Source of the DNA: Dictyostelium discoideum
Taxonomy: Eukaryota
Direction of reading: 5' to 3'
DNA: 64,000 nt
Assembly (NCBI GenBank): GCA_000004695.1
Contig: CM000152.2
Location: 5,984,001 to 6,048,000, forward strand
Part shown: positions 5,441-18,350 of the stretch, piece after piece
Position numbering within the stretch: the first letter of the stretch is position 1
Layout: every line of letters starts with the position of its first letter
Notes under the pieces: model-generated
Databases searched by the model: none
What the model was told of the DNA's origin: nothing
Seen by the model: the letters and a program-made list of their open reading frames with translations, nothing else
Translations under genes and position numbers: made by a program

Positions 5441-6577
5441 TTAATTTCTATTAATAATTGAATGAATAGAAAGTGATCTTGTTGAACCCCATCTTCTTTT
5501 TGCTTCTTCTAAATCTGGTTGTTTATACCAATTTGGATAAGGTAAATCAGGATTGAAACGATAATTTAAAAATACTTCTTGATTTTTAATTGGTTTAAAT
5601 GCAATCAATAATAATGATCTACGTAATACAGAAGTATCATTAAATATTGAATGTTCAGTGACTGTTTTATTTGGAATATATTGAGATAAATGATTTGGAA
5701 AATTGCTTCTAAAATTATAACTATATGCAATAACATTTGGTTCTTTAGTTTGATCAGTATCACCATCACCATCTTTAGTAATAATTGGTGGATGATTTAT
5801 AAAGTTACCAATTGCAAATGGATTTTTATAACAAAGTAAATCAGTACCACTTGATTTTGTACCAAGTTTTTTAAAGAATTTCTCTTTTAAAATTAATTCA
5901 TCAGCTCGTTTATTCCATGACCTACCATCAATTACTGTGCCATCGTAACGTGATATCATATAATCGTTGTCTGAGATTACATTGGACGGGATATTATCAC
6001 CATCGTATGTGTCACCTGGGTAAATCGCAATGACCGTGCCTGGCACACACTCACCCTCGATGTGCACACCGTAACCTGCTTCCTCATGATTGATGTCAGA
6101 TTTTCTGACATGTAATCTAAATCCACGTGGATGGTCGATTGGGTTACCTTGATTATCTGTCTCTTTGATTTTTAAACATCTCTTTACCTTTTCCTCCATT
6201 GAATAGTATGGTAAATCTTTTAATGGCGGTGGGTAACTATTTTCACCACCATATGAATGTATCAATTCAAACATTTCCATAATTTGTGAATCGATTATCT
6301 CTTTGATTCTATTCTTTTGTTGTATATATTTTGGTGGGTTGTCAATGATTTTATCGAGGTTTTCTTCATTCTCTGTGAATTTCTCGAAATTACCATCATA
6401 TTCATAATAACATGATCTATAAGTCTCAGTTGCAATGTAAGCTTTAAATGTATCAATCATCTCTTGATCACCTTGTGAATAAAGTTGTTTACCATCATTG
6501 TTATTGATTTTACCTTGATTATTCTTTGAAAATTTTAATCCAATATTACGAATTGAATTACTAATTCTATTTATCAT
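5441..6577 (-). CDS. SET-domain protein (SETD9-like putative methyltransferase), 378 aa, single exon.
   Basis: Full-length ORF with SET-like motif order: GYGVHIEGECVPGTVIAIYPG, then GNFINHPP (NH motif), then EVFLNYRF (ELxF/Y motif). Confidence 0.5.
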   Translation of the reverse strand: MINRISNSIRNIGLKFSKNNQGKINNNDGKQLYSQGDQEMIDTFKAYIATETYRSCYYEYDGNFEKFTENEENLDKIIDNPPKYIQQKNRIKEIIDSQIMEMFELIHSYGGENSYPPPLKDLPYYSMEEKVKRCLKIKETDNQGNPIDHPRGFRLHVRKSDINHEEAGYGVHIEGECVPGTVIAIYPGDTYDGDNIPSNVISDNDYMISRYDGTVIDGRSWNKRADELILKEKFFKKLGTKSSGTDLLCYKNPFAIGNFINHPPIITKDGDGDTDQTKEPNVIAYSYNFRSNFPNHLSQYIPNKTVTEHSIFNDTSVLRRSLLLIAFKPIKNQEVFLNYRFNPDLPYPNWYKQPDLEEAKRRWGSTRSLSIHSIINRN

Positions 6578-8892: not shown

Positions 8893-9045
8893 TTTTTTTT
8901 TTTTTTAACATTTTAAAAATGATCAGATTTTTGATTGAGGATTCTGTTTTTTATTTTTATTTTTTTTATTTTTTTTCATTTTTTTTTTATTTTTTTTATA
9001 ATATTTTCACACACCAAATCAAATCCAGGTATTTTAATAATAACA

Positions 9046-9891
9046 ATGAGCCATCTTAGAGGGTCAATTAAAAAAATTGATGAAGCATTAAGTTTGAAAT
9101 GGATAAAATTAAATAAAATTACTTATATTGATTGTAAAGGAAATGAAAGAGTATGTATGATGATGATGATGTTGACGATGACAGTGATAGTGGTATTGAT
9201 GGGATTAAAAAAAAAAAATACAAACTTTAATTCTAATTATAATAATAATAATTTTAAAAAATTAAATAGTTTTGGGAATCAGCATCAAGAACTACAAAGA
9301 AAGGAGATACAGATGGAGTTGATATATTAGCAACAGTGAAAAAAGATGGTAAAAAATATTTAATTGTTGTTGTTCAATATAGAGTTCCAGTTGATAATTT
9401 AGTGATTGAATTTCCAGCTGGTTTAGTTGATAATGATGAAAACTTTGTAAATTCTGCAATTAGAGAATTAAAAGAAGAGACTGGTTATAGAACAACTCCA
9501 GATAAAGTATTATTAACATCACCAATTTTACCATTGGAATGTGGTATGAGTTGTGCTAATGCTAGAATGGTTGTAATTGATGTATGTAATTTTAAACATG
9601 ATTTATAAAATTTTTTTTTTTTTTTGTATTTTCTCCCCCAAATTTTAATCCATTTTTTTTTTTTATTTTCATTTTATTTTTTTATTTTATTTTTAAAATA
9701 TAAATTAGTTGGAGGAAACAATTTGTGAAGAACAAGAATTAGAAGGTTCAGAAAATATTGATATATTTTATTTACCAATGGATAATTTATTTAATGAATT
9801 GGAGGAATTAAGAAAGAAATTAAATTGTGTTGTTAGTATTCAATTATATACATTTGCATTGGGTTTAAATTTTAATAATTTTTTTAAATAA
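9046..9891 (+). CDS. Nudix hydrolase, NUDT5-like ADP-sugar pyrophosphatase, about 199 aa. Exons 9046..9150, about 9270..9581, 9709..9891.
   Basis: Exon 1 (MSHLRGSIKKIDEALSLKWIKLNKITYIDCKGNER|gtatgt), exon 2 (WESASRTTKKGDTDGVDILATVKKDGKKYLIVVVQYRVPVD...PAGLVDNDENFVNSAIRELKEETGY, a Nudix box), then a GTATGT donor at 9582. Exon 3 (LEETICEEQELEGSENIDIFYLPMDNL...) starts at a TAG acceptor. The printed sequence and the ORF track disagree by 1 nt twice within 9241..9300, so the exon 2 start is +/-1. Confidence 0.7.
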
Positions 9892-9979: not shown

Positions 9980-10522
9980 CTATTTCTTTTTCTTTTTAAC
10001 ATCTTTATAAACAATTTGAGAAATATTTCTAATATCTAATGAATTTGTAGGTTCGAAATAATTTGAAGCACCAAATTTCAAAGAAGTGGTTCTACCTTCT
10101 TCAACAGAGATATCAGTTGGTTTTAATGGATTTGATCTTTTCTCTGGGTACATACCAGTGATAAAAATTGGAATTTTACCCATAAATTCAATTTCTGGTA
10201 TCCATTGGAAAGGAATATCTTCAAAGGAGATTCTATCATTGGTAGTGAATGCAATGACAGCAGCATCGGCTTGTTCGTATTGAAGTGCACGAAGTCTTGA
10301 ATAACGATCATCACTTGAAGTATTTACAAAAGTGAAATGAATTGGTTTATTATCAATTTGAATAATACCAGTGAAAATCTTTTCAAAATCATTCTCTGCT
10401 TCAATTCTACAATCTTCTAAAGCAGACATACAATATTCAATTAATAATTCTTTATCTTTTGTTTTATCACCTGCAATTACAATAATTATACTATCACCTG
10501 TACAAACAATTTATAAAAGTAA

Positions 10523-10562
<40 letters not shown>

Positions 10563-11716
10563 AATAAATATTTACTATATTTCTTTTTAATTGGTTTCTT
10601 TATATTTGAAGATGAAGGAATTAATGATTTATTAATTGGATTTTCAGTTGATTGTTGTAATTGATTTTCTTTTTTTTTCTTTTCTTTTTCTTTTTCAAAT
10701 TGTTTAACTCTATTAATAAATTCAGAATCTCTTGCATTTAAATTTTCTTCTTTCTTTTCAATATTTTTTAATTTTTCATTTAATTTCTTTTTAGATTCTT
10801 CATTGATATTATTGATTCTTTCATCCAATTTCTTTTTAGATTCTTCATTGATACTATTGATTTCTTCTTCTAACTTTTTCTTTGATTCCAATTGAATAGA
10901 GTTCATTTTCTTTTCCATTTCAAGATTAACTGTTTTCATTTTCAATTTAACTTGGTCATCAATCATTTTTTGATGTTCAGCTTTCATTCTTTCGGTTTTG
11001 ATATGATTTTTCTTTCCAATTAAGCATTTGTTAATTGATTCAATGATACCAGTATTGATTTTATTACCTTTAATTGTTAATGCTAAAAAACGATATTTAA
11101 TGAATTCAGGATTCTCGAATTGATGAAGGAAAGCATTGGCACCAGCATCACCAATTCCACAGAAAAACAATGAAAGATTCTTTAAACGACTTGAACCATT
11201 GATTAATTTGGATAAAATGATAGCACCTTCATTGGAGATTTTATTACTATTTAAATGAATGGTTTCTAATGTATGATTGACTGATAATGCATCTACTAAA
11301 TATTCCATTGATTTACCGGTTATATCACATTCAGAGATATATAATGATTTAAGTACACATTGTTTTGATTTCAATGATTGACATAATAATTTTAAACCTT
11401 GATCACCAATTGGATTATTATCTAACTTTAAGAATAACAAATAACGATTACTTTCAATACCTTCACATAAATGTTTTATACCTATATCTGTAATACTATT
11501 ACTTGAGAGATCTAATGATGAAACAATAGCTTGCTGCCCTAAAGCTTTGGAAATAGTTTTTACACCTTCATCACCCAAATTAATATTTTCTAACTTTATT
11601 AATGGGTGTGATTTTCCATTCATTAATACTTTAGAAATGGTTTTTGGATCATGATCACCAATCTTTTTAAAAAGATGACCTGCAGCTTCTAATGATACAC
11701 AATTATCATATTCCAT
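9980..11716 (-). CDS. Multidomain protein of about 552 aa: N-terminal RNI-type leucine-rich repeats, a central K/E-rich coiled coil, and a C-terminal degenerate Rho-type GTPase domain (pseudo-GTPase). Exons 11716..10576 and 10497..9980.
   Basis: ORF 10523..11716 holds LRRs (LDLSSNSITDIGIKHLCEGI..., LKLDNNPIGDQGLKLLCQSL...) and EESKKKL repeats. A GTAAAT donor (reverse complement of atttac at 10570..10575) and a CAG acceptor (10500..10498) join it in frame (phase 1) to ORF 9980..10429. The C-terminal FVNTSSDDRYSRLRALQYEQADAAVIAFTTNDRISFEDIPFQWIPEI aligns with Rac [47 protein letters not shown], but the P-loop reads IVIAGDKTKDKE instead of GDGAVGKT and DTAGQ is replaced by NTSSD. Confidence 0.65.
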
Positions 11717-11939: not shown

Positions 11940-11986
<47 letters not shown>

Positions 11987-12204
11987 GGAAGGTTAGATTA
12001 ATAATCCTTTTTTTGGACTTTAAAAAATTACTGTAATTTTTAAAGTCTTTAAAAAAAAAGTTTTTTTTGTAAAAAATAATTTTATAAAAAAAAAAAAAAA
12101 AAAATTATTTAAATTTTAATTACATTTTATTTTGAGTTATAAAACACTATTTTTTTAAAATAAATTAAATAATATTAAATAAAATTATTAATAATGTATT
12201 TTAT

Positions 12205-12863: not shown

Positions 12864-14409
<1,546 letters not shown>

Positions 14410-17268: not shown

Positions 17269-18350
17269 TTTTTTTTTAGTTATTTAATTAATTATTATTT
17301 TTCCAATAGTCAGGTGGTACGATTGTACCATTTGAAAAGAATATGGTTAGATTTTTAGATAATTTTAGTGGTGGTAATCGTGGTGCAACAACAGCAGAAT
17401 ATTTTTTACAAAAAGGATATTATGTATTATTTTTATCAAGAAAGAATTCCCTTCAACCGTTTGTAAAGAATTTAATGTTACATGAGACCAACTTCTTTAC
17501 ATATTTAGGTATAAATGAAAATGATGGTGGTAATGGTAGAAATAATAATAATAATAATAATGAAAATGAATTTAAAAATGATAATGATACAATTTTATCA
17601 CCGTCGTTGGATGTTATAAAGAATCATGTTTGTATTGGTGAAGATTACTATTATGAAGTTTCAAAAGAGTATTTAAAATGGAAGAAATTCTGTGAAAATG
17701 GTAGTTTGGAGAGAGTTAATTTCGAAACTGTTGGTGAATATTTATATTTATTAAAAAACATTTCAACTGAGTTATCAATTTTAAAGAGTAATTTAATAGT
17801 GTATGCAGCGGCTGCAGTATCAGATTTCTATATACCATTGGACATGATGGCACAACATAAAATTCAATCAAAGAATCAGTCATTGACAATCACATTGGAT
17901 CCAGTGCCGAAAATGATTAAATTCTTAGTAGACAATTGGTGTCCAAATTCATACATTGTCACATTCAAATTAGAAACTGATCAAACCATTTTAAATGAAA
18001 AATGTTTAGCATCATTATCAAATTATAATCATCAATTAGTAATTGGTAATCTATTATCAGATTACAGAAATTGGGTAATATTTCATCAACAACAATCTAA
18101 GCCAATAATTGTTAAAAGAGAACTAACACAATTCCAAATTCAACAACAACAAAAATTATCACCATCATCTTCTTATTCTTTAAAAAATGATAATCATGAT
18201 CATCATCATGATCATCATCATGATCATCATGACCATGATCATCAACATCAACAAAAACAACCAATTGGTGTTGATCATCCAATTGAATATAATATTGGTG
18301 AAAAATTAATTGAATTACATAATGAATTTATTAATAAAAATAGTAATTAA
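17079..18350 (+). CDS. Phosphopantothenoylcysteine synthetase (PPCS, CoA biosynthesis), about 389 aa. Exons 17079..17207 and 17310..18350. C-terminal His/Asp repeat tail.
   Basis: Exon 1 [43 protein letters not shown]|gtaagc. Acceptor ccaatag|TCA gives [47 protein letters not shown], collinear with human PPCS (VTSGGT...VRFVDNFSAGRRGATSAE). Confidence 0.8.

Follow-up and report, generated by a model that had tools for sequence, protein, structure and literature searches.

The window analysed here is the 64,000-nt stretch of the Dictyostelium discoideum genome at positions 5,984,001 to 6,048,000 of contig CM000152.2 (assembly GCA_000004695.1), and our subject is the minus-strand gene for the 552-residue protein Q54S88, whose features are collected in Table 1. 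Two collinear minus-strand open reading frames (ORFs), 11716–10523 and 10429–9980, are joined by a splice from 10576 to 10497 into a 1659-nt coding sequence of 552 codons plus a stop. An earlier note on this DNA, made from the letters of the sequence, had named this junction and product length, and the splice is indeed that of the reference gene model: sequence comparison showed the product to be identical to D. discoideum AX4 XP_640151.1 (EAL66162.1, UniProt Q54S88). When exon 1 is instead read through, the frame ends after 17 more codons within the AT-rich intron. The gene is already known as a prediction in public databases, where its Pfam domains are precomputed and Q54S88 is labelled merely as a "leucine-rich repeat-containing protein". 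A literature search for Q54S88, XP_640151 or EAL66162, and for Dictyostelium together with pseudoGTPase, returned no paper on it. The same note had called the pairing of leucine-rich repeats (LRRs) with a defective Rho-like domain unusual, and we found no described LRR–helix–Rho architecture in the literature, but as a predicted protein it was not new. We propose, with a probability of about 0.85, that the gene encodes a conserved Rho-derived pseudoGTPase in a novel architecture.

Table 1. Features of the Q54S88 gene and its product, in window coordinates
Feature	Position	Strand	Remarks
Whole gene, start to stop codon	9980..11716	-	Two exons, 552-aa product; spliced translation identical to XP_640151.1/Q54S88
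Exon 1, 1141 nt	10576..11716	-	aa 1-380 and first base of codon 381
Phase-1 intron, 78 nt	10498..10575	-	GTAAAT...ACAG; 9% GC; exactly at the linker/G-domain boundary
Exon 2, 518 nt	9980..10497	-	aa 381-552 and TAG stop at 9980-9982
RI/NLRP-type LRR domain, aa ~20-230	11027..11659	-	Seven beta-strand/helix units, 28-32-residue spacing
Single long E/K-rich alpha-helix, aa 222-341	10694..11053	-	Predicted helix H222-341 (AF2)
45-nt (15-aa) tandem repeat	10774..10888	-	INxINEESKKKLxE units (TRF)
Disordered basic linker, aa 342-380	10577..10693	-	AF2 pLDDT <50 for aa 336-379
Putative Rho-family pseudoGTPase domain, aa 381-552	9983..10497	-	First base of codon 381 at 10576
P-loop remnant GDKTKDKE (Rac1 GDGAVGKT), aa 390-397	10448..10471	-	HMMER and MAFFT alignments
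Switch II remnant NTSSDDRYSRLRALQYEQAD, aa 439-458	10265..10324	-	DxxGQ gone, YxRLRxLxY docking patch kept
G4 remnant MYPE replacing T/NKxD, aa 496-499	10142..10153	-	M496 invariant
C-terminal polybasic tail KKKKK, aa 548-552	9983..9997	-	No CAAX box, no Cys

As the two halves of the protein lie on separate exons, we considered whether the locus could hold two genes, one for an LRR–helix protein and one for a small Rho-like protein, wrongly merged by annotation. An automated annotation of D. cf. discoideum does split it into two genes, with products of 383 aa and 176 aa (P0024/P0026; KAM9980087/KAM9980086), and the 176-aa model begins MIFTG, from an ATG inside the intron. AX4 lacks that intronic ATG and reads ATT GTT TGT there; its exon 2 has no usable start, the first ATG being at 10429. 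The 23 residues upstream of this ATG, SDSIIIVIAGDKTKDKELLIEYC, make up β1, the P-loop and helix 1 and are among the best conserved of the family, so exon 2 cannot stand alone: a start at 10429 would delete all three elements despite their strong conservation. A phase-1 intron lies at the same linker/G-domain boundary in D. firmibasis (87 nt) and D. purpureum (72 nt), and within one codon of the D. discoideum position in Cavenderia fasciculata (83 nt), so that three further species share its position and phase. Two environmental relatives, P0010 (ORF 98–1735 of contig L001) and P0030, encode LRRs, helix and G-like domain together in a single ORF without interruption, and every dictyostelid genome matched has a full-length ortholog among its annotations. 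On these sequence comparisons the locus is a single spliced two-exon gene, the D. cf. discoideum split is treated as a gene-calling artefact, and the existence of two separate genes is scarcely credible.

A full-length AlphaFold2 (AF2) model built on a 12-sequence alignment (mean predicted local distance difference test score, pLDDT, 80.5; predicted template modelling score, pTM, 0.48) divides the protein into four predicted parts, namely seven LRRs, an E/K-rich helix of ~120 residues, a basic disordered linker and a C-terminal G-domain that is compact at aa 382–551. Over aa 21–230 the LRR pLDDT is about 77–97, mostly 88–97 and lower at the N-terminal cap, whose motif is conserved. The repeats had been assigned to the ribonuclease inhibitor (RI) and NOD-like receptor (NLR) type, and this is borne out by the match of the domain to Pfam LRR_6 (3e-17), by its sequence matches to ribonuclease inhibitor (1e-46) and to NLRP5/14/3 (1e-24 to 1e-31), and by RI and NLRPs as the top Foldseek matches (about 1e-12). 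With the LRR_6/RI match and the modelled α/β horseshoe, the LRRs are of the RI-like class. A RanGAP-like assignment was also considered and rejected: plant WPP/RanGAP-like proteins gave only weak LRR matches, those to RI and NLRPs were far stronger, and nothing RanGAP-specific was seen.

The helix contains 25 Lys and 20 Glu per 120 residues. Tandem Repeats Finder (TRF) detected within it a repeat of period 45 nt (2.0–2.3 copies, 84–93% match), which corresponds to the EESKKKL repeat of the earlier note. The repeat thus stands, inside a long predicted helix; the E/K-rich segment may be either the coiled coil claimed there or a single-α-helix spacer. The linker that follows is the least conserved segment of the protein.

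The C-terminal exon had been expected to give a Ras/Rho match, and its 172 residues matched Pfam Ras (PF00071) at E 5e-10 with about 38–40 bits (39.6; 37.7–39.6), the cutoff being 21.6. A phmmer search of the PDB with this domain returned RhoA, Rac1, RhoB or RhoC for all of the best 60 matches (best 2e-12), and with a profile built from nine family sequences the best 60 were again all of the Rho family, including plant ROPs, at 1.7e-20 to 5e-19. Scored against reference sequences entered by hand, the family profile gave 73.9 bits for RhoA, 71.7 for Rac1 and 62.6 for Cdc42, compared with 38.9 for Rab1A, 35.2 for Ran, 34.2 for Rab5A, 24.8 for HRas and 22.2 for Rap1A. Structure prediction, which the earlier note had put forward as a check, agreed: the domain alone was modelled by AF2 with pLDDT 87 and pTM 0.84, and the best 50 Foldseek matches of this model were all of the Rho family (TM 0.70–0.79), with Entamoeba EhRho1 (3reg) at rank 3. 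By its profile score above the cutoff and its predicted G-domain fold, the domain belongs to the Ras superfamily, and the sequence matches place its descent within the Rho family.

To map the motifs, 10 family members were aligned in Rac1 numbering, and invariance was read from the 12-sequence alignment. At the P-loop, Gly10 and Asp11 are kept in the family and Lys16 in all members, Gly12 is Lys or Asn, Gly15 is Asp in 10/10 members, and Thr17 is Glu, Asp, Cys or Asn (Glu in D. discoideum and acidic in nearly all); G390, D391, D395 and K396 are invariant. The P-loop described as replaced is therefore replaced at Gly15 and Thr17, but Gly10, Asp11 and Lys16 survive. Switch I is mostly rewritten, with a 2-residue insertion and a predicted extra β-strand (AF2); Phe28 is aliphatic or Thr, and Thr35 is Asn, Ser, Arg or Lys, with Thr in C. 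fasciculata only. In the G3 region Trp56 is Val, Met or Ile, Asp57 is Asn in all members, Thr58 is retained, Ala59 is Ser, Gly60 is Ser, Gly or Ala, Gln61 is Asp, His or Asn (Asp in D. discoideum) and Asp65 is Ser, with N439-T440-S441 invariant; the alignments to Rac1 thus confirmed the reported change of DTAGQ to NTSSD. At G4, Asn/Thr115 is Met in all members, Lys116 is lost and Asp118 is Glu or Asp (His once; Asp in most orthologs), so the NKxD box, now M-Y-P-E, is gone as a motif, but calling it absent slightly overstated the case, because an acidic residue is kept at the position of Asp118. The degeneracy claimed for G1, G3 and G4 extends to G5, where the SAK/SAL motif is lost, and the family can be summarised by the readings GDxxxDK[EDCN], NTS[SGA][DHN] and Mxx[ED]. 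Farther along, His103 is Phe, and the Rho insert carries a deletion of 8–9 residues in all members; between E111–116 and H132–141 the AF2 domain model shows a helical turn of just three residues (aa 118–120) and no helix of insert length. The domain thus lacks functional G1–G5 motifs, a Rho insert helix and a CAAX box, and its 38–40 bits against Pfam Ras compare with 150–240 bits for intact Rho domains in other architectures.

What is retained is concentrated in the switch II docking patch, where S447–E455 are invariant; in Rac1 numbering Arg66, Arg68, Leu70 and Tyr72 are invariant, Tyr64 is mostly kept and Leu67 is Val in one environmental sequence. R448, L449 and L452 of Q54S88 are the counterparts of Rac1 Arg66, Leu67 and Leu70. 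Trp97, Pro99 and Glu100 of helix 3 (W97-x-P-E) are kept in all aligned members, and the polybasic end is conserved in all members, with K549–K551 invariant. The pattern of motif loss is that of a class-i pseudoGTPase as judged from the alignments, and the G-domain has probably lost the ability to bind or hydrolyse GTP.

An alternative is that the domain is an atypical but working nucleotide binder with a non-canonical pocket, acting like Rnd or RhoH as a Rho that is always loaded. The retention of Lys16, of Gly10/Asp11, of Thr58 and of the acidic residue at the position of Asp118 would fit such a protein, as would the Thr35 of C. fasciculata, and there is a precedent in the N-terminal p190RhoGAP domain, which binds GTP without hydrolysis (PMC10211241). 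Against this, all members carry the changes Gly15 to Asp and Asp57 to Asn, at positions where the known mutations have consequences, G15A abolishing the binding of nucleotide and D57N reducing that of GTP; Thr17 is acidic in nearly all of them, Phe28, Asn/Thr115, Lys116 and the SAK motif are all lost, and the Pfam Ras score is low. We regard a working nucleotide binder as improbable.

Orthologs of Q54S88 were found in D. discoideum strains, D. citrinum, D. dimigraforme, D. firmibasis, D. purpureum, Polysphondylium violaceum, Tieghemostelium lacteum, Synstelium polycarpum, C. fasciculata, Acytostelium subglobosum and Heterostelium album. The seven genera sampled are accordingly Dictyostelium, Polysphondylium, Tieghemostelium, Synstelium, Cavenderia, Acytostelium and Heterostelium, and the motif losses recur in 11 orthologs over these genera and in the two environmental sequences, which settles in the affirmative the question of their conservation raised with the original observation. 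When 1.84 billion representative proteins were searched exhaustively with the profile, only five family clusters scored >190 bits, four of them dictyostelid and one environmental (P0030); a word-indexed search from P0030 added just P0010. Below 190 bits lay intact Rho domains in other contexts, and the longer multidomain matches considered as relatives (tandem Rho, RhoBTB, ubiquitin-VWA-Rho and F-box-Rho proteins) were rejected, all having intact G-domains. P0010 (contig L001, JGI 3300032739, 2520 nt, 41% GC, ORF without intron) and P0030 (Logan) have the full shared architecture; identity is 56% between the two and 33% between each of them and the D. discoideum protein. The family may extend beyond the sequenced dictyostelids.

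Two ortholog models depart from the common form. In that of P. violaceum (P0004, 715 aa) a Hikeshi-like region (PF05603/PF21057) follows the G-like domain and the KKKKK end is missing; it probably represents two merged gene models. In that of H. album (P0011, 378 aa) LRR units 2–6 are missing between the N-terminal cap and the final LRR, while helix and G-like domain are present; the short form is probably due to missed exons rather than real. Outside the family, a Rho-like protein of Phalansterium solitarium (P0042, EukProt EP01116, 384 aa) continues into a C-terminal coiled coil. It shares with the family K12, S60-D61-D62, S65, A69, E73, a DTQSDDQFSRYRALNYEE-type switch II and the Rho-insert deletion, and it keeps GDKGCGKT, DT and SKKD, with an intact P-loop; from these sequence features it may represent an active cousin lineage of the dead domain.

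The gene is single-copy in each species, and its surroundings are conserved, with a NUDIX neighbour at L002, L003 and L004 and a TLC-domain neighbour at L002 and L003. The ratio of nonsynonymous to synonymous substitution rates (dN/dS), calculated by the Nei–Gojobori method between D. discoideum and D. firmibasis, was 0.035 for the G-like domain, 0.089 for the helix, 0.135 for the LRRs and about 1.6 for the linker (36 low-complexity codons). Purifying selection is thus strongest on the dead G-like domain, no other part of the protein being under so tight a constraint, and this rules out a decaying remnant.

Having lost the nucleotide motifs and kept the docking patch under such constraint, the protein could act as a Rho-pathway docking scaffold, a function that we put forward tentatively and at slightly less than even odds. 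The G-domain would be permanently nucleotide-free-like and would act by binding rather than by switching, as a Rho mimic docking a partner that reads switch II, most plausibly a Rac exchange factor. The seven-repeat RI-type LRR horseshoe would offer a protein-binding surface to some other partner, the ~120-residue helix would serve as a spacer and/or dimerisation rod and the basic linker as a floppy joint, while the polybasic tail, in place of a lipid anchor, could keep the protein at acidic membranes. The docked partner would then be tethered or titrated wherever the LRR domain and the tail direct the protein. The role of scaffold or decoy in Rho signalling that the earlier note had suggested is, in this general form, plausible from the sequence.

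The case for this function comes from the positions that changed as well as from the patch that did not. Thr17 is a Mg2+ ligand, the usual dominant-negative form of Rac is T17N, and guanine nucleotide exchange factors (GEFs) and many other partners use the switch II patch. Rac(G15A) and RhoA(G17A) cannot bind nucleotide, hence have high affinity for activated GEFs, and serve to pull GEFs from lysates (PMC3608494; PMC7351999), Rac2 D57N has lower GTP binding and is dominant negative (PMC5927519), and a myc-RacT17N reagent appears in the vector list of PMC3608494. The invariant substitutions of the family at Rac1 positions 15, 17 and 57 therefore fall at sites whose mutation yields a nucleotide-free or dominant-negative Rho. 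Within the patch, Tyr64, Arg66, Leu67 and Leu70 are RhoGDI contacts (PMC8253491) and are also contacted by the ELMO RBD (PMC7351999). Because the patch is kept and the changes at Gly15, Thr17 and Asp57 are invariant, a RacGEF or another switch II reader appears the likeliest partner. That the partner is specifically a GEF (RacGEF) is nonetheless doubtful at present, and we hold in equal doubt the more pointed idea of a "dominant-negative Rac" encoded in the amoeba's own genome, by which RacGEFs would be titrated or positioned.

Several points weigh against the proposal. Residues that GEFs read (Trp56, Ala59, Gln61 and Asp65) are changed and most of switch I is rewritten, so that a canonical DH/DOCK interface is not assured. 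RhoGDI is an unlikely partner to judge from the sequence, because His103 is Phe and the prenyl group is absent. Some residual nucleotide binding may persist, given the retained Lys16 and acidic residue at 118, and the helix may be a monomeric single α-helix, not a dimerising coiled coil. Finally, with a full-length pTM of 0.48, AF2 leaves the relative positions of the domains undefined.

The last point bears equally on a different explanation, in which the G-like domain is an intramolecular or structural module that folds on, or dimerises with, the LRRs or the helix, for example autoinhibiting the LRR surface, and in which the link to Rho is one of ancestry only. The LRRs and the G-like domain are conserved together in every ortholog, the flexible linker would permit fold-back, and the rewritten switch I with its predicted extra β-strand also speaks for it; moreover, several kinds of LRR bind small GTPases, as in SHOC2-MRAS and RanGAP-Ran. 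The AF2 model, in contrast, has no confident interdomain packing, the invariant residues form the generic Rho partner-docking patch and not a new surface, and the LRR domain evolves ~4x faster than the G-like domain, which would be unexpected for a tight, co-evolving contact. An intramolecular role is on balance unlikely, and partner docking is the function that we continue to favour.

The NLR-like character of the repeats also raises an immune role, in which the Rho mimic would be a guard or integrated decoy that baits bacterial toxins or effectors while the NLR-like LRRs sense or relay the encounter. The logic would be that of NLRs with integrated decoys but without a NACHT domain, and the targets would be GEF mimics, GTPase-activating protein (GAP) mimics and Rho-modifying toxins. 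Dictyostelids eat bacteria, many bacterial effectors bind the switch regions of Rho proteins, and plant NLRs carry integrated decoys. The LRRs are of the NLRP/RI type and the Rho-like bait retains switch II, and YopE acts on Dictyostelium Racs (PMC2724381). The idea fits poorly, however, because the gene is single-copy, in conserved synteny, and under very strong purifying selection: a bait domain with a dN/dS of 0.035 shows none of the diversification or copy-number variation of an arms race. The toxin target residues Thr35 and Gln61 are themselves changed, and the Pfam scan showed no NACHT, TIR or other signalling domain. Both the decoy function and this set of targets are thus very improbable.

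Around the gene, the sequence is AT-rich in the manner of Dictyostelium, with a GC content of 7–17% in intergenic windows compared with 25–30% in exons. Two A/T homopolymer runs, one of ~50 nt upstream of the gene (11941–11995) and one of 25 nt within the intron (10532–10556), are typical of Dictyostelium non-coding DNA. On the 3′ side, a multi-exon NUDIX hydrolase gene on the plus strand (8935–9891) converges on the LRR-pseudoRho gene, the end of its last ORF at 9891 being 88 nt from the stop at 9980; this neighbour is also present in D. firmibasis, D. purpureum and C. fasciculata. Upstream, a minus-strand exon at 13397–13672 encodes a TLC (TRAM/LAG1/CLN8) domain (1e-21) and probably belongs to the ceramide synthase CrsA (DDB_G0282607, PMC11402645). 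Farther out lie a minus-strand ORF of 378 aa (5441–6577) with no Pfam match at E<=0.01, and a plus-strand ORF of 335 aa (17343–18350) with a DFP domain (2e-13; phosphopantothenoylcysteine synthetase-like) and a histidine/aspartate-rich low-complexity tract.

Among pseudoenzymes, the pseudoGTPases form a small group that is still poorly understood, and few of its members are clearly Rho-derived. Here, in all dictyostelid orthologs found, evolution has fixed changes at the very positions that researchers mutate to obtain nucleotide-free or dominant-negative Rho, and these fixed substitutions, together with the tighter constraint on the domain, suggest a permanent "GEF-trap-like" Rho module as a normal part of signalling. 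Dictyostelium is genetically tractable and has a very large repertoire of Racs, GEFs and GAPs. If true, a docking role could show Rac signalling to be wired in a way not seen before; were the domain purely a structural remnant, the result would still upgrade the annotation of Q54S88 and its orthologs.

Among known systems, the closest are the Rho GTPases themselves (Rac1, RhoA, Cdc42 and EhRho1), with which the domain shares its predicted fold, the Rho-specific YxRLRxLxY signature of switch II/α2, the W97-x-P-E motif and a polybasic cluster at the C-terminus. What sets it apart is the degenerate G1, G3, G4 and G5 motifs, the shortened Rho insert, the missing CAAX box and its position at the C-terminus of a 552-aa multidomain protein; EhRho1, like the LRR-pseudoRho domain, has no Rho insert. 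The engineered or disease-associated Rho mutants (Rac1 G15A, RhoA G17A/V/E, Rac2 D57N and Rac1 T17N) have their natural counterparts here at the same positions, but with Asp rather than Ala at 15 and Glu or Asp rather than Asn at 17, and the changes in switch I and at Trp56, Ala59 and Gln61 may weaken any recognition by GEFs. Class-i pseudoGTPases offer another comparison, as the non-binding p190RhoGAP domains pG1/pG2 and CENP-M provide precedents for pseudoGTPase domains that act as scaffolds (PMC10211241). The family resembles these in combining a G-domain fold with lost nucleotide motifs and a presumed scaffolding role; they, however, show no recognisable derivation from Rho and differ in partners and architecture, whereas the present domain keeps its Rho identity and switch II patch, and its loss of nucleotide binding is predicted from the sequence.

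The kinship with Roco and NLR proteins evoked by the earlier note did not hold up. Roco proteins (LRRK2 and Dictyostelium GbpC/Pats1/Roco4), a family abundant in Dictyostelium, likewise carry LRRs N-terminal to a Ras-superfamily G-domain, but the LRRs of Q54S88 are of the RI type, not the short typical type, its G-domain is Rho-like and apparently dead, not an active Roc, and between LRRs and G-domain lies a helix-plus-linker stretch of ~150 residues. The full-protein Pfam scan gave no COR or kinase match, and the protein ends five residues past helix 5. With NLRs and ribonuclease inhibitor it shares the LRR subtype and RI-like repeats of 28–29 residues; unlike NLRs, it has no effector domain and just seven repeats, its LRRs begin at about aa 20, and the same scan gave no NACHT or NB-ARC match. 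RhoBTB proteins (e.g. P0047) also fuse an atypical Rho domain to protein-interaction modules. In RhoBTB, however, the Rho domain is N-terminal and followed by BTB, and it keeps its P-loop, P0047 scoring 160 bits against Pfam Ras.

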